From: Chloroflexota bacterium
GTDB lineage: Bacteria; Chloroflexota; Dehalococcoidia; Lucifugimonadales; Lucifugimonadaceae
Length of the DNA: 64,000 nt
Assembly: GCA_027623655.1 (NCBI GenBank)
Contig: JAQBVG010000001.1
Coordinates: 9,817-73,816, forward strand
Reading direction: 5' to 3'
Position 1 is the stretch's first letter; every line of letters begins with the position of its first letter. Made by a program: the position numbers and the translations under genes. Positions 180 through 10,355 of this stretch are shown piece after piece. A model generated the notes under the pieces. The model saw nothing but the letters and a program-made list of their open reading frames with translations, had not been told where the DNA came from and ran no database searches.

Positions 180-977
180 TTAGGTGTCGGTCAGTGCTTC
201 CAGTAACGCCGGGAGCGCAAGACCTGCCGTTGAGCGCAACGATAACTCACATAATGAGGTTAGTTTCGTTTCGGATGGGTTGATTTCGATCATAGTCGCA
301 CCGGCGGCTTTGGCGATCCACAACAGTCCGCTGGCGGGCCTGACGGTTGCAGACGTGCCGATTGCAATCACGCAGTCTGCACGGTCGATCTCTGCCCTTG
401 CGGATCGCATTACGTCTTCTGGGATGGGCTCTCCGAACATCACGGTGTCGAACTTGACCAGTCCACCGCAAACTCCACACGGGTCCGGGGCGAACAGCGG
501 TACGACATCGGCAAGTAAGACACGATCATTGCAGTCGACGCACCGTAGTTTCTGGCGGTTGCCGTGAATCTCAAAAAGTTTGTCGACACCAGCTTTTTCG
601 TCCAACCCATCAATATTTTGAGTGATAACTGAGTTCAGCGCGCCGATCTGCACCATCCCCGCCAGGGCGAAGTGTCCTGCGTGGGGCCTCGCATTTTTCA
701 GTGCGTCTCGCAGCTCCATTATGTGGGCATCGATCTTCTCGTTGGTTCGACGGTTCCACCAGCCGATCGGATCTTTTCGAAACCGCGAATAGCCGTCCAT
801 CGGAGGTGTTCCATACTTAGTCCATAGCCCGTCAGTGCCACTGAACGGTGGAATGCCGCTTTCGACCGACATTCCGGCACCGGTCATGGCTACGGTGTGA
901 TCGGACTGCCGCAATATCGATGCTATCTCCCCGACCTGGGAGCGTAGATCAGGATTGTGCTCGAATGTGGTGATCAT
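180..977 (-). CDS. cobB: NAD-dependent protein deacylase, Sir2 family
   Basis: 265 aa. Carries GAGMSVESGIPPF..GLW, QNIDGL and HG motifs plus a CxxC...CxxC zinc ribbon (CVDCN ... CGVCGG). TAA stop. Overlaps the recF stop by 4 nt. Confidence 0.9.
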   Translation of the reverse strand: MITTFEHNPDLRSQVGEIASILRQSDHTVAMTGAGMSVESGIPPFSGTDGLWTKYGTPPMDGYSRFRKDPIGWWNRRTNEKIDAHIMELRDALKNARPHAGHFALAGMVQIGALNSVITQNIDGLDEKAGVDKLFEIHGNRQKLRCVDCNDRVLLADVVPLFAPDPCGVCGGLVKFDTVMFGEPIPEDVMRSARAEIDRADCVIAIGTSATVRPASGLLWIAKAAGATMIEINPSETKLTSLCELSLRSTAGLALPALLEALTDT

Positions 978-2188
978 TGCCGCCGGGCGCTGGCAATGGC
1001 GTCCTGTGTGACTCGACCGTTCATCACGGTATAGATATCAGCCCGTTCGAGAAATTCGTCGGGCAAGATTCCCGGCTCTGTTGCCGTGAGGAGCACCTGT
1101 TCATGCTGGGATGCAGCATTGAGGACGAGCTTGCGTCGCTCTGGATCGAGTTCCGAGAGGATATCGTCGAGGGCGAGGACCGGCGTTCGGCCGGTCGAGC
1201 GCGTTACAAAAACTGCTTCTGCAAGTTTCAATGAGAGGGCAATCGTGCGAGATTGTCCACGGGAAGCGAACTGACCGGCCGGATTCCCGTTCAACTGGAT
1301 ATCGAGATCGTCACGGTGCGGACCAATCACAGTCAATCCCTGGGCAATCTCGCGTCTGCGGATCGTCGGAAGGGTCCGACCAATTGCTTGCTCGATCATT
1401 TCTGCCGTCATCGAGCCAACATCTGACCGACCGGCCGCCGACGTTGAGATCCGCGGCCGATAAATAAGCTCAAGATCGTCACCATCCGTGAGATCGCGGT
1501 GCGCAGGAACTGCGTGTGTGTTCAAGCCATCGATCGAACGCCGTCTGGAATTCGTCACGCGGGCGCCCTCGTAGGCGAGTCTCTCGTCCCAAAACGCCAG
1601 TTCGTCTTCTTCCGAGATACCGTCGCGAATTCGCCGCAATAACTGATTCCGCTGATTAACAACCTGGCCATAACGCTGCAGGGTTTTCAAATAGGCCGGA
1701 TCCGACTGAGAAATGAGAATATCGAGGTAGCGTCGGCGTCTTCCGGGTGATCCATGAATTATCTCGAGATCGTTCGCCTCGAAGAAGACGACGTTCAGGT
1801 TCCCGACGAAGTCAACGGCCGATCGCTTAATACCGTTGACCCTGAGTCCCTTGCGGAAGCCGCCTGTGGTAGCGGCCGAATACCCTTCCTGTGAGCTATT
1901 CAGCGCAGTCACATCAACATCGATCTGGGCCTGAGTGGTCGTATCCCCCTGGCGACCTACTCCCAGGATCTGCATGTGACCGCCTGTTTCGCCAAGCGAC
2001 CAGTTGACCAGATCGCGCTCGTTGGACGACCGAGGCGATTTTGCTATGGCCAACATGTAGGCAGCCTCAAGCAGATTGCTCTTGCCCTGGCCATTCCGGC
2101 CCTGGAAGAGGGTCAGACCGGGGCGCAACCCCAACTCTGTATTTGTGTGGTTTCGGAAACCAGTTAGGGAAAGCCTCGATAGGTAAAT
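974..2188 (-). CDS. recF: DNA replication/repair protein RecF; the track ORF starts at TTG 2134 but the conserved N-terminus continues upstream to an ATT at 2188
   Basis: Walker A GRNGQGKSNLLEA and a C-terminal signature/Walker B region (LLLDDILSELD-like: LALDDILSELD). Upstream and in frame, IYLSRLSLTGFRNHTNTEL matches the canonical RecF N-terminus (L..L.l.nFRN). An in-frame TAA lies at 2215..2213, and there is no ATG/GTG/TTG between it and 2134. Confidence 0.85.
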   Translation of the reverse strand: MYLSRLSLTGFRNHTNTELGLRPGLTLFQGRNGQGKSNLLEAAYMLAIAKSPRSSNERDLVNWSLGETGGHMQILGVGRQGDTTTQAQIDVDVTALNSSQEGYSAATTGGFRKGLRVNGIKRSAVDFVGNLNVVFFEANDLEIIHGSPGRRRRYLDILISQSDPAYLKTLQRYGQVVNQRNQLLRRIRDGISEEDELAFWDERLAYEGARVTNSRRRSIDGLNTHAVPAHRDLTDGDDLELIYRPRISTSAAGRSDVGSMTAEMIEQAIGRTLPTIRRREIAQGLTVIGPHRDDLDIQLNGNPAGQFASRGQSRTIALSLKLAEAVFVTRSTGRTPVLALDDILSELDPERRKLVLNAASQHEQVLLTATEPGILPDEFLERADIYTVMNGRVTQDAIASARRQ

Positions 2189-2408
2189 CGGAGTGCCTTT
2201 ACGATGATCGAGTTATCTTGATCAACTTCGAGCGGTCAGTCATTCAGTTTGCGAATTCTAGCATCGCGTCCCGCCGAGAAATCGTAGTGCTGGCAGGCAA
2301 ACACCAAAGTCGAACCTGTCGCACCCAACGTAGTACGGACAAGTTGAGAACCTCGAATTCAGTCGTACGAGGAACCTCGTCCGATTTGTAACATTTGTCT
2401 GCGAGCGG

Positions 2409-3500
2409 TTGATGCACAAAGTTGTGGGACTCGGCCTGATCGTCCTGTTGATCGGATACGTTGCGTGGATTGCAACGGGCGGATCGACGCTCAAATCCGG
2501 GGAGACCGTTTTGGTCGAAGCAGACGACGATTCGACCGCGCCAGGTTCGGATCCTCGCCCGCTGGAAATCGTTACTTTGCTCGGTTTCGACGCAATTCGT
2601 TCAATTGAGAGTCCCCGGTTCGTAGACACGAAAATCGCAGACGAAACTTACGGACAGGACGAACTCGTACTCGGCGTAGACATCGAGGGCGACGTACGCG
2701 CCTATTCAGTCCCTCTGCTCAGCCGTCACGAAATCGTCAACGACGTCGTCGGCGGAAAGCCGATTGCCATAACTTGGTGACCACTTTGCTTCACTGGAAT
2801 CGGGTATTCCAGAGAGATCGGCGGGGTAGTCCACGAGTTCGGAGTGTCTGGCAAGTTGATCATGAATGCTCTCGTAATGTACGACCGAGAGACCGAGTCG
2901 CTCTGGAGCCAGTTTTTATCCAGATCGGTCAAAGGGCAACTAAATGGAGTGCTGCTGGAGACGATCCCTCTCACCCTTACCACCTGGGCGAAGTGGAAAG
3001 AAATCCACCCCGAAACGATCGCATTGCGCAAGGCAAATAAAGGTGGTGATCCGTACCTGGGTTACTACAGCGGCCGATCGGCGGGCGTGATCGGAGAGTC
3101 GAACAAGGATGATCGGCTGCCCACCAAGGAGCTGGTTCTTGGCCTGGGTTTCGACGGCGATCCGGTAGCGTTCCCGCATTCTCAATTGCGTTCACAGAGA
3201 CTGGTCGAGACGCTGCACTCAGGCGCAGCAACGATAATCTTCTTTGATGCACAGACTGACACGGCGCTTGCATTCAGCGCCGTCGTCGGTGGACGAGAAC
3301 TCAGTTTCAAGATTGTCAACAGGAACGGTCGTGAGTGGCTCCAGGACGAACAAACTGGCACGTTGTGGGTCCCGTTTACCGGTCAGGCGGTCGATGGCGA
3401 ACTGGCTGGCAGCGCACTTCCTCGACTACACGCGGTGAATGCATTCTGGTTTTCGTGGAACGACTTCTATCCCGAAACCGCTGTGTGGAGTCCCGGCTAG
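2409..3500 (+). CDS. DUF3179-family protein with N-terminal membrane anchor; single in-frame TGA (2778..2780) read as selenocysteine in a U-P-L-C motif (candidate selenoprotein, 363 codons)
   Basis: - Track ORFs 2409..2780 and 2844..3500 are in the same frame.
- The only stop between them is the TGA at 2778..2780. Codons 2781..2843 are open and read PLCFTGIGYSREIGGVVHEFG.
- The joined sequence ...HEIVNDVVGGKPIAITW-U-PLCFTG...FGVSGKLIMNALVMYDRETESLWSQ matches my memory of the DUF3179 core (tyCPLC ... sG.L..snlvmyDreTeSlWsQ).
- The probable start is ATG 2412 (MHKVVGLGLIVLLIGYVAWIA is a TM helix). Confidence 0.7.
2794..2812 (+). promoter_or_regulatory. Candidate bacterial SECIS hairpin downstream of the DUF3179 UGA
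   Basis: CTGGAAT (2794..2800), loop CGGGT, ATTCCAG (2806..2812): a perfect 7-bp stem. After an A/A mismatch, 3 further pairs are possible (UUC/GAG region). The stem begins 13 nt after the UGA, and the loop contains G and GU as in characterised bacterial SECIS apical loops. Confidence 0.5.
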
Positions 3501-3630
3501 ACCAGAGCATCCACCACCCCCAATCGATGCACGATGTTATTGGCCATCATCGCAAGGAAGATAAACGCGACTCCGCCGAATGCCGTGCCGAAGATAGAAT
3601 GTGGTGCCGTAATTCTTCGTCAAATGGATT

Positions 3631-4164
3631 TTGTTCTGGCGGTGTGTATTGGATCTCAAGTCACTTATCCGCGACGTGCCCGACTATCCCACGCAGGGTG
3701 TGCTGTTCCGCGATATGACACCTCTGATGGCCGATCCAAGGGCGATGTTGCATGTCACGGAGACGCTTTCAGATCACCTGCGATCGAAGAAGGCTGAGGC
3801 CATCGCCGCAATAGACTCGCGTGGATTCATCTTCGGTGCACCCGTTGCAGCAAGGCTCGATATTCCTTTCATCCCGGTAAGAAAGGCAGGCAAGCTCCCT
3901 CCACCGGTGATAGGAGCGGATTACGAGCTCGAATACGGGAACGCCCGGCTCGAAGCGAGCATTTCGGCGGTCAGCGCGGGACAAAACGTTGCCATTGTCG
4001 ACGATCTGCTGGCTACGGGCGGGTCGGCAGGCGCCGCAGCAGAACTCATGGCATCGCTGGGAGCGAACATAGTTTCGATGGCGTTCCTCGTGGAACTCGA
4101 ATTTCTCAACGGTCGATCCAGATTACCTGCCGGTATCGACGTATTTACGATAGTGCAGTACTAG
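3631..4164 (+). CDS. apt: Adenine phosphoribosyltransferase
   Basis: DLKSLIRDVPDYPTQGVLFRDMTPLMADP N-terminus and the PRPP-binding loop VAIVDDLLATGGS. The true start is probably the second TTG at 3649 (LDLKS). Confidence 0.9.
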   Translation: MFWRCVLDLKSLIRDVPDYPTQGVLFRDMTPLMADPRAMLHVTETLSDHLRSKKAEAIAAIDSRGFIFGAPVAARLDIPFIPVRKAGKLPPPVIGADYELEYGNARLEASISAVSAGQNVAIVDDLLATGGSAGAAAELMASLGANIVSMAFLVELEFLNGRSRLPAGIDVFTIVQY

Positions 4165-4166
4165 CC

Positions 4167-4949
4167 GTGGATTTAACCTCTGTTAGTCGGCCTGTTGCCG
4201 TAACGTTCGATCTTTGGCAAACGTTGATATTCGAATTCGATGGCTCTTCAAAATCCGGGACACGTCGAAAGATCAGGGCCGAGTACGGCGAACAGGCGCT
4301 CTCACTGCAGGGAGAGTCGGTGACCCGGGACGCGATTGATCAGTTGTTGCTGGAACTGTCTGAAGAGATCACAGGTGGCCACGACCACGGCAAGGACCGA
4401 CCCTATGAGGACTGGATACGCCTGCTCATAGACAGAATTGACCCGAACCTGGGTTCGCGTCTTGGCAGGAAGGGTCTAGAGGACTTTGGCGCAGTGATCG
4501 ACCAATCGTTCATCGAGTCGCCGCCGCGGTTGATCGATGGTGCGATCGAGTTGCTTGAGAATCTCTCGGGTATGGGGCTAAAGATTGGCCTGATATCAAA
4601 TACCGGGCTGACCAGTCCGGCGACCTACAGAAAGTGGTTTTCGCAAATAGGTCTACTCGAATGGTTTGACTATCTGGCGTTCTCGAACGGTGAGGCTGTC
4701 GCCAAACCGAACAAGAGAATATTCGACGTTACGCTTGGCGCCCTCGATGTCGCACCCGAAAGGACGCTGCATATTGGCGACAACCTTCACACCGATGTCG
4801 GCGGAGCGGCCGCGGCCGGCATGTCTACGGTCTGGGTCCGAGGTGGTATCAAAACGCCTGTTGTGACCGAGGTTAGGCCCGATTACACCATCGATACGGT
4901 GCTTGAACTGGAGCACGTTGTGGAACGCTGGCTTGAGACGCAAATTTAA
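4167..4949 (+). CDS. HAD-superfamily hydrolase
   Basis: 260 aa. Motif I variant FDLWQTLI, SNT (motif II) and a C-terminal GDN..TD motif (HIGDNLHTDVGGA). Confidence 0.7.
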   Translation: MDLTSVSRPVAVTFDLWQTLIFEFDGSSKSGTRRKIRAEYGEQALSLQGESVTRDAIDQLLLELSEEITGGHDHGKDRPYEDWIRLLIDRIDPNLGSRLGRKGLEDFGAVIDQSFIESPPRLIDGAIELLENLSGMGLKIGLISNTGLTSPATYRKWFSQIGLLEWFDYLAFSNGEAVAKPNKRIFDVTLGALDVAPERTLHIGDNLHTDVGGAAAAGMSTVWVRGGIKTPVVTEVRPDYTIDTVLELEHVVERWLETQI

Positions 4950-5710
4950 ACGGCCATCGAAGGTCGAAGGAGCCGGCGGTGTGCAAATCGAACTGCGCCA
5001 AACACTAACCCGAAGTCGACGATCGTCAGCAGCCCAATGAAAATTGTTGCCTCGAAGAAGAACTGCTGGGGGAACATGATGATCAGGTAGTCGTTGTACG
5101 GGTCGAGGAGCCACAGGTCGTTTGCGAAGCTAAGGAAGTGAAACTGGGTGAACACCCATCCGAAGTTAATTGCGGAGGCAGCGCCGAAAACGATCAAGAA
5201 CCCGCCGGTTCCAATTGCCGACCACTTGAGCGATCTCAACAGCAACGCTGGCGCTTCTCGCTTTAAAACGGCACCGAAGCCGATCAGGACCAGAAGAAGA
5301 CCGACTCCTGTCCAGAGTGTCACCGCGAATACACCCTGGACCAGAGCCTTCACGTCGACCATGTGCAGTATTTCTCGTTCTTTGTACAGGGAGATGACAG
5401 TTCCGCCGTAGTTCACACGCAGGTCGAGAAACTCTTCGTCGTTTCCGAAGTACTCCTTGATCTGGTCCGCTCCGCTGTTGAGTTCTTCAACCGGCAGGCC
5501 AGTCCGGTTGGCGATGTCGTTCCGCCACCAGCCGTAGTCGTACAGCCACTCGCTGTTGGTGATGTAGCCAACGTTGAAAAGGATCAGAAATACCGGGAAC
5601 AAAATGGCAAACAGCGCCGCAGAGACGAGCGGCGCGATGTGGCGGGCATGGCGAGTTGACTCAGGGTTGTGCCGATTACGGGTGATTGCGAGAGGCATGA
5701 CGGTTAGCAT
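4946..5710 (-). CDS. Integral membrane protein, TIGR01906/DUF1461 family
   Basis: 254 aa with multiple hydrophobic helices. It carries the characteristic ...KEREILHMVDVKALV... motif (HM.DVK.L) of this family. Confidence 0.6.
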   Translation of the reverse strand: MLTVMPLAITRNRHNPESTRHARHIAPLVSAALFAILFPVFLILFNVGYITNSEWLYDYGWWRNDIANRTGLPVEELNSGADQIKEYFGNDEEFLDLRVNYGGTVISLYKEREILHMVDVKALVQGVFAVTLWTGVGLLLVLIGFGAVLKREAPALLLRSLKWSAIGTGGFLIVFGAASAINFGWVFTQFHFLSFANDLWLLDPYNDYLIIMFPQQFFFEATIFIGLLTIVDFGLVFGAVRFAHRRLLRPSMAV

Positions 5711-5765
5711 ACGTGGCAGTTTGTTGACGAGCGATGGTCAAACACGGAGGTTGCGATTGAGTTCA

Positions 5766-6530
5766 ATGAGTGAGCGGGCCAGGGCGGCCGGAGAGGCGTT
5801 TGCGGAGCTTGTGGGCACTGTGGAGACTTTGAGAGATCCGGGAGGTTGCCCGTGGGACGCCGAACAAACACATATTTCACTGCGATCAAACTTGCTCGAA
5901 GAGACCTACGAGGTGCTTGAGGCCATCGATTCAGGCGATCCGAAAAATCTCGAAGAAGAGTTGGGTGATGTCCTGACCCAGGTCGTTTTTCACGCTGACA
6001 TGGGCACTCGCAGTGAAAGTTTCGATGCCACTTCAGTTTGTGATGCTGTACGCGAAAAGTTGATCAGACGCCATCCACATGTCTTTGGCGGGGAGGCGGC
6101 ACTTTCCGATTCTGAGGATGTTGTTGATCGCTGGGAATCACTTAAGCGTGCTGAATCGGGCGGTAATCGTTCGGTGGTTGCGTCGATACCCTCTGCAATG
6201 CCAGCCCTGGCGTACTCATCTTCAGTTCAGCGGCGCGTGATGCGAGCGGGTCTCCCGTGGCCGGAAAAACACGCAATACCGCTGGTATTTGGCAAGATCG
6301 AGGGTGAATCGCTGGAAGATGGTGAGGAACGGGCAGGCGAGTACTTGATGGGGGTCGCAAGGCAGGTGCACGCAGCCGGAATCGATCCTGAAATAGCGTT
6401 GCGAAAGGCCACGGTGAGATTACGAAACCACGTGCTGCGTTCGGAAGAACTGGCAGGTGACGTACCACTGGCAGAACTGGACGATAGTGAGCGGATTCGC
6501 ATCTGGGATGCAACTGAAATAAACGAGTAG
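5766..6530 (+). CDS. mazG: Nucleoside triphosphate pyrophosphohydrolase MazG
   Basis: LRDPGGCPWDAEQTH...LLEETYEVLEAID...EELGDVL tandem MazG motifs. The ATG at 5766 (MSERARAAG) was chosen because the longer track ORF from 5574 overlaps the upstream minus-strand gene. Confidence 0.85.
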   Translation: MSERARAAGEAFAELVGTVETLRDPGGCPWDAEQTHISLRSNLLEETYEVLEAIDSGDPKNLEEELGDVLTQVVFHADMGTRSESFDATSVCDAVREKLIRRHPHVFGGEAALSDSEDVVDRWESLKRAESGGNRSVVASIPSAMPALAYSSSVQRRVMRAGLPWPEKHAIPLVFGKIEGESLEDGEERAGEYLMGVARQVHAAGIDPEIALRKATVRLRNHVLRSEELAGDVPLAELDDSERIRIWDATEINE

Positions 6531-6565
6531 CCACTTACCGAAGGGGCTACTGACGAGATTGCCCG

Positions 6566-7618
6566 TCAAGACCTGACTGTCACGACGCCCGGAGTACCGC
6601 TGGAAACCTCGCCGATAACTTGACTGTAAAGCGTTCGATTATCAATCAAACTCTTTACAAGATCGTCCGCTCGGTCTCGTCGCACTGAAATTAGCATTCC
6701 CCCTGATGTTTGTGCGTCGGCAAGAATCGTGAATTCAAGATCGGACACCCCGGTTGCGAGCATCACGGAATCTTTCAGACCGTCCATGTTACGAGCGGTC
6801 CCGCCCGATACTGAACCCGATCTTGCCAGTTCGAGCGCTCCCGGTAGTATCGGAACGCTGGACCAACTGACTGTAGCTGTCACTCCGCTGGCGCTCATCA
6901 TCTTTGACAGATGGCCGAGCAAGCCAAAGCCGGTGACGTCTGTGGCTGCGTTCACCCCGACTTCAAGCATGGCGTTGGCTGCACCCCTGTTCAACGCCGC
7001 CATTGATCTCACAGCCTCCTGGATCGACTCGGCGGAAGCGGTACCGGCCTTCCCGGCAGTCGTTATAAGGCCTGAGCCGATCGCCTTCGTCAGCACAAGA
7101 ACGTCACCCGGTTGTGCGTTTGCGTTTGTAATTTGTTCACCCGGCACAACTATCCCCGTTACGGCCAGTCCGTATTTCGGCTCTCTGTCGTCGATCGTGT
7201 GACCGCCGATGATCAGGATTCCCGCCTCCTCAGCCTTTACCTGGCCGCCTTCCAGGATCCGTGCGATTACATCGAACCCGAGGCTGCGTGGGAACGCTGC
7301 TATGTTGAGGGCAGTCAGGGGGGTTCCTCCAACTGCATAGACATCGCTGAGGGCATTTGCAGCGGCGATTCGACCGTAGTCGAAAGGGTCGTCAACAATC
7401 GGCGCAAAGAAATCGGTCGTGAGCACGAGAGCCACGCGATCGTCTATCCGGTAGATGGCAGCGTCATCGCCGGTTTCGAGTCCGACCAGCACATTTGGGT
7501 CAGTGATGGTCGGTTTTGGCAGCTTGCCCAAAACCTGGGCAAGTTCGCTCTGGCTGAGCTTTCCAGCTCAACCGGCGCAGGCTGCCAGTTCGGTTAGTCG
7601 CACGGGTTTATTGCTCAT
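6566..7618 (-). CDS. selD: Selenide, water dikinase (selenophosphate synthetase) containing an in-frame UGA = Sec at codon 17
   Basis: - The track ORF 6566..7531 carries the SelD body (LVGLETGDDAAIYRI...TTDFF.PIVDDPFDYGRIAAANALSDVYA.GG.P).
- Upstream and in frame, ATG 7618..7616 gives MSNKPVRLTELAACAG-TGA-AGKLSQSELAQVLGKLPKP.
- The TGA at 7570..7568 sits exactly where E. coli SelD has its glycine-rich-loop Cys (GCGCK) and where Sec-type SelDs have U.
- Total length is 1053 nt, or 351 codons including the stop. Confidence 0.85.
7523..7572 (-). promoter_or_regulatory. Candidate SECIS region of selD (two hairpins)
   Basis: Minus-strand RNA.
- GGUUGAGC-UGGAAA-GCUCAGCC forms an 8-bp stem that contains the UGA itself.
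- CUUGCCCA-GGUU-UGGGCAAG (7543..7523) forms a perfect 8-bp stem with a GGUU loop, 24 nt after the UGA. Confidence 0.5.
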
Positions 7619-7846
7619 GTGTACTAAATCGTGACATACACCAGGATGAAAATACATGGCGATGCCATCACATTTCGGCATCCATATGCCAGGAAAAGTC
7701 ACCCCACTTGACCCATGCGTACATGTGAAGGGTTATTCCAAATTGACGGGCAGAACCTCGCGAACGACAATTTGTTATTCCGATCCACCACCGGGTCAAT
7801 TAGCATCAAGATTCACCCACAAGAGTCGCGTGCCCAGAATATCCGC

Positions 7847-9172
7847 ATGAGCAATATCCCTGAACAAGAACTTCTCCCGACAACCGCCAGCGTTAGCGAA
7901 GACGACCGATTGTCGATCGGTGGATGTGACGTGCGGGACCTCGTGGAGGAATTCGGAAGCCCACTCTACGTATACGACGAGCAGACATTGCGCGGTATGT
8001 GCCGCGATTTTGTTTCCAGTTTTACGAGTGAGTATCCGCGAACTCGAATCGAGTATTCATCGAAAGCGTTCGCAAACCCAACCGTCGCAAAGATCATCGA
8101 TGAAGAAGGCCTGTACATGGATATCGTTACGGGCGGGGAGTTGGCGGTTGCAATTGCCGCAAACTTTCCAGCCGAGCGGTTGAACTTTCACGGCAACAAC
8201 AAGGGACGCGAAGAACTGGTGGAGGCGGTCAATTATGGCATCGACAGCATCACTATTGACTCGTTCGCCGAAATAGATTTGCTAAGTGAAGTGGCCGTTG
8301 AGCAGGGCGTTCGCCAGAAAGTCATGCTCAGACTTTCACCGAGCATCGACCCGCACACCCATATGCTCACATCAACCGGGATCCTTGATTCCAAGTTTGG
8401 ATTCTCGATTGAGACAGGCGATGCGGAAACTGCGGTCGAACAGGCGTTAGCTAAAGACTCGCTGGAGGTCGAGGGACTTCACTTCCACCTGGGATCGCCG
8501 ATCTTCGAACTCGAACCGTACTCGGAGGCGATCGACTACGTATTGCAATTTGCAGCGAATATGCGCGACAAGTATGGCCTGGTGCTCAAGAGGTTCAGCC
8601 CCGGTGGCGGTTTCGCAATCGGCTATGTGGCGGACACCCTTCCGCCGTCTATGGGAGAGTATGCAAAAGAAATTGCAACGGCAATCCGCTCCGGATGCGA
8701 CAGGTATGGGCTCGACGAACCTGAACTGACTGTTGAACCCGGTCGTGCGATCGTGGGACGCGCCGGTATCGCGGTTTACACGGTAGGCGGGGTAAAGACG
8801 ATCCCGGGAGTTCGTACTTACGTGAGCGTGGACGGCGGCATGGGGGACAATATTCGCCCGGCCCTTTACGGCGCTCGCTATGCGGTAGTCCCGGTCGACC
8901 GTCCCACTGCGCCGCGAACTCGAACGGTCACTGTTGTTGGAAAGTTCTGCGAATCCGGCGACTTCCTCGCCCGCGACGTTGATCTACCGGAACCGGAAAC
9001 CGGTGAATTGCTGGCGCTTCCTGCGTCAGGTGCATACTGCCTGATGATGGCCAGCAACTACAACATGCAAACGCGTCCGGCGGTGGTCCTGGTGAACAAT
9101 GGCAAAGCACGATTGATGCGCCGACGGGAGACATACTCCGATTTGCTCGCAGGGACTCTGAATCTTGACTGA
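7847..9172 (+). CDS. lysA: Diaminopimelate decarboxylase
   Basis: Fold-III PLP decarboxylase motifs: YVYDE, YSSKAF (PLP Lys), HFHLGS, GGG(F)AI, EPGRAIVG and CESGD. The ATG at 7847 (MSNIPEQ) is preferred over the longer ORF from 7715. Confidence 0.9.
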   Translation: MSNIPEQELLPTTASVSEDDRLSIGGCDVRDLVEEFGSPLYVYDEQTLRGMCRDFVSSFTSEYPRTRIEYSSKAFANPTVAKIIDEEGLYMDIVTGGELAVAIAANFPAERLNFHGNNKGREELVEAVNYGIDSITIDSFAEIDLLSEVAVEQGVRQKVMLRLSPSIDPHTHMLTSTGILDSKFGFSIETGDAETAVEQALAKDSLEVEGLHFHLGSPIFELEPYSEAIDYVLQFAANMRDKYGLVLKRFSPGGGFAIGYVADTLPPSMGEYAKEIATAIRSGCDRYGLDEPELTVEPGRAIVGRAGIAVYTVGGVKTIPGVRTYVSVDGGMGDNIRPALYGARYAVVPVDRPTAPRTRTVTVVGKFCESGDFLARDVDLPEPETGELLALPASGAYCLMMASNYNMQTRPAVVLVNNGKARLMRRRETYSDLLAGTLNLD

Positions 9173-10355
9173 GAGCGTTTCCGCGGCTGAATTGGCAGCA
9201 GTACGTCGTCCCCCCACGATCGGTTGGAAGACTTTTGGGCACCCTGGTGCAGTACGGCTCCTGTCCCGATCTGCTGAAATGGGCAGACTGGCGCACGCCT
9301 ACCTGATTACCGGACCGGACAAGGTCGGCAAGCGCACGCTGGCTATTGACTTGGCGTGCATGGTGAACAGTGAGCCTGTGGTCGACATGTTCGGGGAGGC
9401 GCCGAACATCGATCTGCGAACATCACCCCAGGCAGACCGTATACGCCGAGGCATTCACTCCGACGTGCGTGTGATTGACCCGGGCACCGAGATTGAGAAA
9501 GACAGTCGACGAGCGTCTATCAACGAGGACGGCACGGAAAGGGGAAGACAAACAATTTCTATCGATCACATCAAGGATCTTATTCGAGCTTCAGCCACCA
9601 AACCTTTCGAAGGTGCCAAAAAAGTTTTCATTATCGATGGTGCGAACAGGATGGTTGAAGCGGCGTTCAATTCGATGCTGAAAACGCTTGAAGAGCCTTC
9701 GGATGATGTGTTGATCGTGCTCACCGCGCCGACCGCGGAATCACTGCCAGAGACAGTCGTTTCCAGATGCCAGCGGATCGATTTGAGGCCGGTAGATACA
9801 AAAGTAATTGAGCGAGAACTGATCGAACGGTTCAAAGCCGACGAATTGCAGGCGCGATCAATGTCGAGGCTTGCCAGGGGCTGCCCGGGTTGGGCAGTGG
9901 ACGCCATGAACGACCCGACGATCATCGACGCCCATAACCAGGCTGTGTTGCGGTTTGCCGAGATCGTCACCGGTAACATCGAAGAGCGATTTCGGTACGC
10001 ACGCCAAACAGGTGGTCAGTTCTGGCGTGACCGAGAAGGCGTGCTGATCGAAATGCACCGCTGGCTCGAGTGGTGGCGAGACGTGGCGATGATGCGGCAC
10101 AAGTTGGGCGACAACGTCACAAACGTCGAATGGGCTGACCTGTTCAGTCAGATCGCTGGCGAACTGACCGATGTTCAGATCTCTGTCGCGGTGACCGCCG
10201 TCCAGAGCGCAACAGAGGCTCTTCTGGCAAATGCTGTGCCTCAGCTCACCCTGGAAGTTTTGATGCTTGATCTGCCCTGGGTTGATCCCGCCAATGTGGC
10301 ATCTCTCAAGTTCGATGAGCAGGAAACACTCGACGATCAGGAAACGCTGGACTAA
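9165..10355 (+). CDS. holB: DNA polymerase III subunit delta-prime
   Basis: AHAYLITGPDKVGKRTLA (degenerate P-loop), FIIDGANRM...NSMLKTLEEP, and a SRCQ sensor motif. Overlaps the lysA end by 8 nt. Confidence 0.8.
   Translation: MTESVSAAELAAVRRPPTIGWKTFGHPGAVRLLSRSAEMGRLAHAYLITGPDKVGKRTLAIDLACMVNSEPVVDMFGEAPNIDLRTSPQADRIRRGIHSDVRVIDPGTEIEKDSRRASINEDGTERGRQTISIDHIKDLIRASATKPFEGAKKVFIIDGANRMVEAAFNSMLKTLEEPSDDVLIVLTAPTAESLPETVVSRCQRIDLRPVDTKVIERELIERFKADELQARSMSRLARGCPGWAVDAMNDPTIIDAHNQAVLRFAEIVTGNIEERFRYARQTGGQFWRDREGVLIEMHRWLEWWRDVAMMRHKLGDNVTNVEWADLFSQIAGELTDVQISVAVTAVQSATEALLANAVPQLTLEVLMLDLPWVDPANVASLKFDEQETLDDQETLD

Follow-up and report, generated by a model that had tools for sequence, protein, structure and literature searches.

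This work concerns a DUF3179-family gene in a 64,000-nucleotide stretch of DNA (the window) from a Chloroflexota bacterium of the class Dehalococcoidia (assembly GCA_027623655.1, contig JAQBVG010000001.1, positions 9,817 to 73,816 of the forward strand). The complete gene lies at 2412..3500 on the + strand and comprises 362 codons followed by a TAG stop; ATG 2412 is the likely start codon, favored over the alternative start TTG 2409. Translation of the frame 2409..3500 meets a sole internal stop, TGA 2778..2780, in the peptide ...GGKPIAITW*PLCFTGIGYSREIGGVVHEFGVSGKL... (asterisk, TGA), and comparison with relatives indicates that this UGA, at residue 123, almost certainly encodes selenocysteine (Sec). 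A mechanical list of open reading frames (ORFs) divides the gene into 2409..2780 and 2844..3500, which lie in one common frame. With Cys put at the TGA, the protein matched the Pfam family DUF3179 (PF11376) with an E value of 5e-84 and 282.6 bits, against a gathering cut-off of 27; the match is a single stretch, residues 60-356 and profile positions 2-292 of 292, that runs across the stop. Orthologue matches cover residues 1-362, with the TGA spanned, and the gene is intact and uninterrupted but for the UGA. The UGA opens a U-P-L-C motif (2778..2789, + strand; residues 123-126), the UxxC form of the CPLC of the family, and a SECIS-like hairpin (SECIS, selenocysteine insertion sequence) follows it at 2794..2812 on the + strand. 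This hairpin, CUGGAAU-CGGGU-AUUCCAG, begins 13 nt past the UGA, has a 7-bp stem (2794-2800 with 2806-2812) and the loop CGGGU (2801-2805), and lies within coding sequence, in the codons for T-G-I-G-Y-S-R. A first-pass annotation, made from the sequence, had described two ORFs in one frame split by the TGA only, one uninterrupted DUF3179 domain and a perfect 7-bp hairpin at this spacing; all three descriptions hold.

Relatives were collected in three ways: a search of 5.8 billion proteins, with the best 120 matches examined; a genome set of the 80 best loci among GTDB representatives, with one genome per species; and a metagenome set of 80 loci fetched with Cys-form protein queries. An alignment was built from 20 full-length homologues, one relative with the motif deleted (P0001) and nine fragments that start after the motif. 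The TGA falls in the column of the first Cys in an invariant C-P-L-C, a column that is Cys in 20/20 of the full-length homologues, which agrees with the first-pass proposal that UGA replaces this residue; Sec thus stands at the first position of UxxC/T, as tabulated for DUF3179 selenoproteins. TGA occurs at the same column in 79/80 of the species-level genome loci, with the peptide around it conserved on either side as IVNDxVGGxPxAVTW*PLC[FY][TS][GA]I... All 80 of these loci are from Chloroflexota (Dehalococcoidia, Anaerolineae, SAR202 and others). The metagenome set, from independent assemblies, gave 56 Sec-form and 24 Cys-form loci, despite the Cys-form query, and in 27 Cys-form genes the codon at the Sec column is TGT or TGC. 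The nearest relatives of the protein, at 75-78% protein identity, come from Chloroflexota metagenome-assembled genomes (MAGs). Pairwise identity among 129 Sec forms falls to 37% (median, 49%), and the UGA has therefore survived deep divergence. About 65 of the 120 best protein matches are 208-245 amino acids (aa) long and cover only the C-terminal 56-65% of the query. These fragments (P0002-P0041 and others) include nearly all of the closest matches and start just past the UGA, the mark expected of gene callers that stop at the same codon.

Taken from one window, the hairpin is suggestive and not significant: perfect 7-bp hairpins with loops of 3-8 nt number 41 in the window, about 0.9% of its positions have such a hairpin starting 8-25 nt downstream, and support for the element comes from comparison. 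RNAalifold, applied to 82 ungapped Sec-form segments, returned a single helix, formed by columns 23-29 and 35-41 and identical with the hairpin at 2794..2812. Standard pairing was found in 98.2% of cells, against 80.7% in shuffles and 22-51% in slid controls, in which the 3' arm was moved by 1-3 columns. Double-sided changes numbered 73 cells, against 17 in shuffles, and none of 500 shuffles reached 73. Compensatory changes occur in five of the seven pairs, some of them at synonymous sites. Pair 24-40 joins the third base of a Thr/Ser codon with the first base of an Arg codon (ACU...AGA vs ACG...CGN); 60 sequences have G-C here and 17 have U-A, and a one-sided change was never seen, a pattern that protein-level selection could not produce. 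At pairs 26-38 and 27-37 the residues themselves co-vary, T-G...(S/A)-R vs S-A...G-R, so that pairing forces a swap of Gly...Ala/Ser to Ala...Gly. The loop base G31 (alignment column 31, loop position 2) is invariant. All seven pairs form in 112 of 137 Sec forms and six of seven in a further 18; these 130 contrast with 27 Cys forms, which retain 2-5 of the seven. The first-pass annotation had proposed looking for an invariant Cys at the TGA column, for TGA at this column in orthologues and for a hairpin confined to TGA-containing genes, and all three patterns were found. Selection, both purifying and compensatory, acts on the UGA and the 7-bp hairpin, and the comparative data support the view that the hairpin behaves as a SECIS. 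A SECIS is a SelB-binding hairpin just 3' of the UGA with a G in its apical loop, and the rules of spacing and loop applied here are those of fdhF. By analogy with the established bacterial mechanism, SelB, together with GTP and Sec-tRNA(Sec), would bind the hairpin and deliver Sec to the UGA 13 nt upstream.

The alignments also contain variants on this arrangement. The Tyr codon within the hairpin is UAU in 77/80 distinct sequences (window 2793..2815; alignment columns 22-42), held in this form by its pairing with the Ile-codon A. In three Sec forms just three of the usual pairs can form, and a 6-bp hairpin with its register shifted by one, CCGGUC-UCGUGUUU-GACCGG, is present instead; this subgroup (L081:1763, L083:348 and L097:1006) has an 8-nt loop and the motif TF-U-PLCYTGLVFDRR. 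An extended lower stem, columns 20-21 with 43-44, appears in the minimum free energy fold of the window sequence; it was rejected, with about 61-70% of cells paired and no compensatory change. A Cys-form gene, L121:600, is 66% identical to the Sec form L105 and nearer to Sec forms than to any other Cys form, and two of the seven hairpin pairs are left in it. These features suggest a recent change from Sec to Cys in which the SECIS was lost. In several genomes DUF3179 paralogues stand in tandem as Sec+Sec, Sec+Cys or Cys+Cys pairs (L060:3331/4659, L065:3223/4551 and L109:597/1822; L072:3214, Sec, with 4641, Cys; L053:3232/4401, both Cys).

Several observations weigh against reading the locus as a selenoprotein gene. 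The fold energy of the 66-nt segment is unremarkable by itself (z = -1.1). Rfam gave no family at gathering score across the whole window, and a permissive Rfam scan of 2740-2880 gave chance-level matches only and no SECIS family. selA, selB and tRNA-Sec are absent from the 64-kb window, where ARAGORN found 0 tRNAs and where none of the 43 long ORFs scanned has a SelA or SelB domain. The best full-length database match, P0001 (372 aa; L161:6001-7119, also L162, L163 and L164), is a fully syntenic orthologue, with the gene order of window 180..10355 (SIR2-RecF-DUF3179-PRTase-HAD-Lit-MazG-SelD-Orn/Arg decarboxylase-HolB). Its ORF is intact and carries a 135-nt in-frame deletion equivalent to window 2694..2828, which removes 45 codons, including the UGA, UPLC and the SECIS hairpin. 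The deletion is seen in four separate assemblies (two from ENA and two from JGI) and is therefore a real variant; it may mean that the motif is dispensable in some settings, or that this copy is dead. The selD next to P0001 is annotated as truncated (308 aa) and probably still contains a UGA. With these points counted, we consider it very probable that 2412..3500 is a single DUF3179-family selenoprotein gene in which UGA is read as Sec; its product is probably an anchored extracytoplasmic protein, in which U-P-L-C may be a redox center.

The N-terminus of the translated protein reads MHK-VVGLGLIVLLIGYVAWIA-TGG and continues into an acidic linker. The hydrophobic helix (2421..2474, + strand), preceded by K3, was read from the translation as a signal anchor, in line with the membrane anchor noted in the first-pass annotation. 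In the alignment, several Cys homologues have a lipobox-like L-A-(A)-C at the place of this helix. Helix and lipobox-like signals together indicate that the DUF3179 domain is probably extracytoplasmic and N-terminally anchored. The first half of the family alignment matched the second half in hhalign with a probability of 99.9% (E = 1e-33, 132 columns), and DUF3179 is therefore an internal tandem duplication with a repeat of about 130 aa. By alignment, which gives approximate bounds, repeat 1 lies at 2628..3026 (+ strand; about residues 73-205) and carries U-P-L-C, and repeat 2 lies at 3096..3485 (+ strand; about residues 229-358) and has no Cys/Sec motif. An AlphaFold2 model of the Cys homologue P0049, with a mean predicted local distance difference test (pLDDT) score of 85 and most domain blocks above 90, is beta-rich and shows the same strand pattern twice; CPLC of repeat 1 aligns with D-G-E-N of repeat 2. 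In a Foldseek search of the PDB with this model, almost all of the top matches were to Rieske ferredoxins, to NirD or to the arsenite oxidase Rieske subunit. These matches are weak (E = 4.2e-3 to 0.3; template modeling [TM] score of about 0.4-0.55 on the target), and each covers about one repeat. At the sequence level, Pfam gave no link to Rieske or other families even at E <= 10, and a family profile search found no PDB match. We treat the Rieske/NirD-like match as a lead on the predicted fold, and not as family membership.

The N-terminal helix would anchor the protein and hold the two-repeat, beta-rich domain outside the cytoplasm, and U123 and C126 in repeat 1 may cycle via a selenenylsulfide in which Sec would make the attack. 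UxxC, UxxS, CxxU and TxxU form a conserved redox motif of many selenoproteins (PMC1976440). We propose as the likeliest role, though tentatively and with less than even confidence, that U123-C126 is a redox-cycling selenenylsulfide center on the outer face of the membrane. Three points tell against this role: the fold of the P0049 model is not thioredoxin-like, the gene neighborhood is poorly conserved, and UxxC also occurs in metal-binding selenoproteins (PMC13188914 tables). When the flanking ORFs of about 160 loci were clustered, no widely conserved neighbor emerged. At 10 loci, mostly from soil metagenomes (L042, L052, L104, L107, L114, L127, L129, L131, L132 and L148), the Sec-form gene has a protein with Redoxin/AhpC-TSA and Thioredoxin_10 matches no more than about 2 kb away, which hints weakly at a thiol-redox context.

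A second account of function, the main rival, accepts the Sec gene but has U-P-L-C supply two ligands to a soft metal such as Cu(I), Hg(II) or Zn, or to an Fe-S-type site, on a Rieske-like fold that has degenerated. One point toward this account is that C-P-x-C is typical of metal-binding knuckles. Another is the range of known UxxC selenoproteins, among them a cation-transporting ATPase, a CobW-like protein and metal-binding proteins (PMC9312934, PMC13188914). The best model fold matches, to Rieske ferredoxins and the arsenite oxidase Rieske subunit, point the same way, and an unprotected dithiol outside the cytoplasm would tend to oxidize. Set against these are the presence of two conserved Cys/Sec residues only, with no invariant His or further Cys to complete a site; the weakness of the Rieske matches (E >= 4e-3, TM score of about 0.5 on the target), with no Rieske match at the sequence level; and the lack of conserved metal-transport or resistance genes beside the DUF3179 gene. 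We regard a soft-metal site as possible but somewhat doubtful. A bolder construction makes DUF3179 an extracytoplasmic tandem duplicate derived from the Rieske fold, its cluster site replaced by U/C-x-x-C, with the Sec form dominant in Chloroflexota, including aerobic marine SAR202-type organisms. Only fragments of it have support, namely the duplication, the weakly matched fold and the prevalence of Sec in the nearest relatives, and we think it improbable; if true, it would imply an undescribed Se-dependent extracytoplasmic activity in redox or metal(loid) handling.

Two other readings concern the UGA itself. In one, UGA terminates translation, giving a 122-aa anchored fragment and a 218-aa protein from GTG 2844, or is read as Trp or Gly in an altered genetic code. 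Both pieces are in the mechanical ORF list, and termination at UGA is an expected by-product of Sec decoding under selenium limitation, which also counts for this reading. The split would, however, cut through repeat 1 of one domain, and protein-level conservation extends over the 21 codons that separate the ORFs. Recoding to Trp or Gly is countered by the homologues, which place Cys at the column, and by the use of TGA as a normal stop in the window, where it ends about 24 of the 59 long ORFs. We judge termination or such recoding very unlikely. Still less credible is a nonsense mutation, which would make the locus a pseudogene, or a sequencing or assembly error that hides a true TGC/TGT codon: one window alone could not exclude it, and gene callers do split the gene and leave the C-terminal fragments described above, but TGA recurs with conserved flanks in 79 of 80 species genomes and 56 metagenome loci from independent assemblies, identity within the Sec forms spans 37-78%, and the co-varying hairpin accompanies TGA forms only. 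The shared TGA, its conserved flanks, the hairpin and the normal TGA stops together rule out a pseudogene, an error of sequencing and reassignment of the code.

A scan of the window for other split-ORF selenoprotein candidates left two convincing cases, the DUF3179 gene and selD. selD (selenide, water dikinase; 6566..7618, - strand; Pfam AIRS and AIRS_C) is 3.8 kb from the DUF3179 gene and has an in-frame TGA at 7568..7570, in ACAG*AGKLS by translation. With Cys at the TGA it scored 378.7 bits against the TIGR00476 equivalog model (cut-off, 125), which bears out the first-pass statement that selD contains a UGA and that the organism uses Sec. The segment 7495-7575 (- strand) folds at -30.7 kcal/mol (z = -3.6), and 0/200 shuffles fold as well. 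The selD UGA has two stable hairpins at or beyond it; of the two, the second, an 8-bp hairpin with the loop GGUUU at 7523..7543 (- strand), from 24 nt past the UGA, is the likelier candidate for a SECIS. A permissive Rfam scan of 7470-7610 returned chance-level matches and no SECIS family. A 2026 database paper (PMC13326102) reports 46-49 selenoprotein genes in Dehalococcoidia MAGs, and these counts establish Sec use in the clade.

The window is otherwise housekeeping in content (glmS, dnaG, rpoD, ileS, mfd, proB and others). Synteny with RecF and the phosphoribosyltransferase is limited to close relatives. Thirteen low-GC Cys-form loci have an adjoining unannotated protein with multiple transmembrane segments and a GCCGSW motif. 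The longest MazG ORF (5574..6530, + strand; 318 aa) and the convergent Lit-family gene (4946..5710, - strand) share about 135 nt, at the 5' end of the latter. MazG of the syntenic relative is 255 aa long, and the true MazG start therefore probably lies further downstream.

The first-pass annotation had proposed a new selenoprotein, and in this it was mistaken. DUF3179 domain-containing protein, pfam11376, with the motif UxxC/T, is listed as a known prokaryotic selenoprotein family in a 2022 paper (PMC9312934; example, MBW1804167.1), and a 2026 paper lists DUF3179 with one Sec and UxxC/T (PMC13188914; example, MDJ0986319.1). Both credit the DUF3179 selenoprotein to Zhang & Gladyshev 2007 (PMC1976440), where the name DUF3179 is not used; by elimination from the review tables, it is probably OS_HP1 or OS_HP2 of that study. 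Neither the family nor its motif nor the position of Sec is therefore new, and the window gene is a well-supported ordinary example. What goes beyond the review tables is the covariation-backed SECIS, the predominance of Sec among the sampled Chloroflexota relatives, the internal duplication with its Sec/Cys motif in one repeat only, the natural deletion variant, and an RNA hairpin that sets the combinations of amino acids in the protein. NCBIfam has no model matching the DUF3179 protein; this, with the split calls and the C-terminal fragments, shows that DUF3179 genes of Chloroflexota are systematically mis-called. Selenoproteome counts of abundant marine and soil Chloroflexota may be underestimated as a result. 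The practical value of these observations is in annotation, and knowledge of selenoprotein biology is unchanged.

Comparison with known systems places the locus as follows. Like bacterial SECIS elements (E. coli fdhF and the bSECISearch model), the window hairpin lies within coding sequence, with its stem beginning 13 nt and its apical loop 20 nt past the UGA and with an invariant G at loop position 2; unlike them, it has no bulged U, no supported lower stem and no Rfam match. The window selD resembles Sec-containing SelD, a selenophosphate synthetase with U in its N-terminal glycine-rich loop, in having its UGA at the catalytic Cys/Sec position (ACAG-U-AGK) and a strong hairpin downstream; as a protein it is distinct from DUF3179 and relevant only as a sign that the organism decodes Sec. 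In thioredoxin-fold UxxC/CxxU selenoproteins (thiol:disulfide oxidoreductase-like), as in DUF3179, Sec takes the first place in a motif of the CxxC type, but the DUF3179 model is beta-rich with two repeats, and there is no Trx or Redoxin match in Pfam. The likeness to the Rieske ferredoxin/NirD fold consists of uniform but weak Foldseek matches to the Cys-homologue model; unlike a Rieske domain, DUF3179 is without CxH...CxxH ligands and without an invariant His, and has CPLC in one repeat only. Closest is the catalogued DUF3179 selenoprotein, which by the review tables shares with the window gene its Pfam domain, its one Sec and the place of its UxxC motif; it was first described in the Olavius algarvensis delta-1 symbiont, which is deltaproteobacterial, whereas the window copy and more than 130 relatives belong to Chloroflexota.

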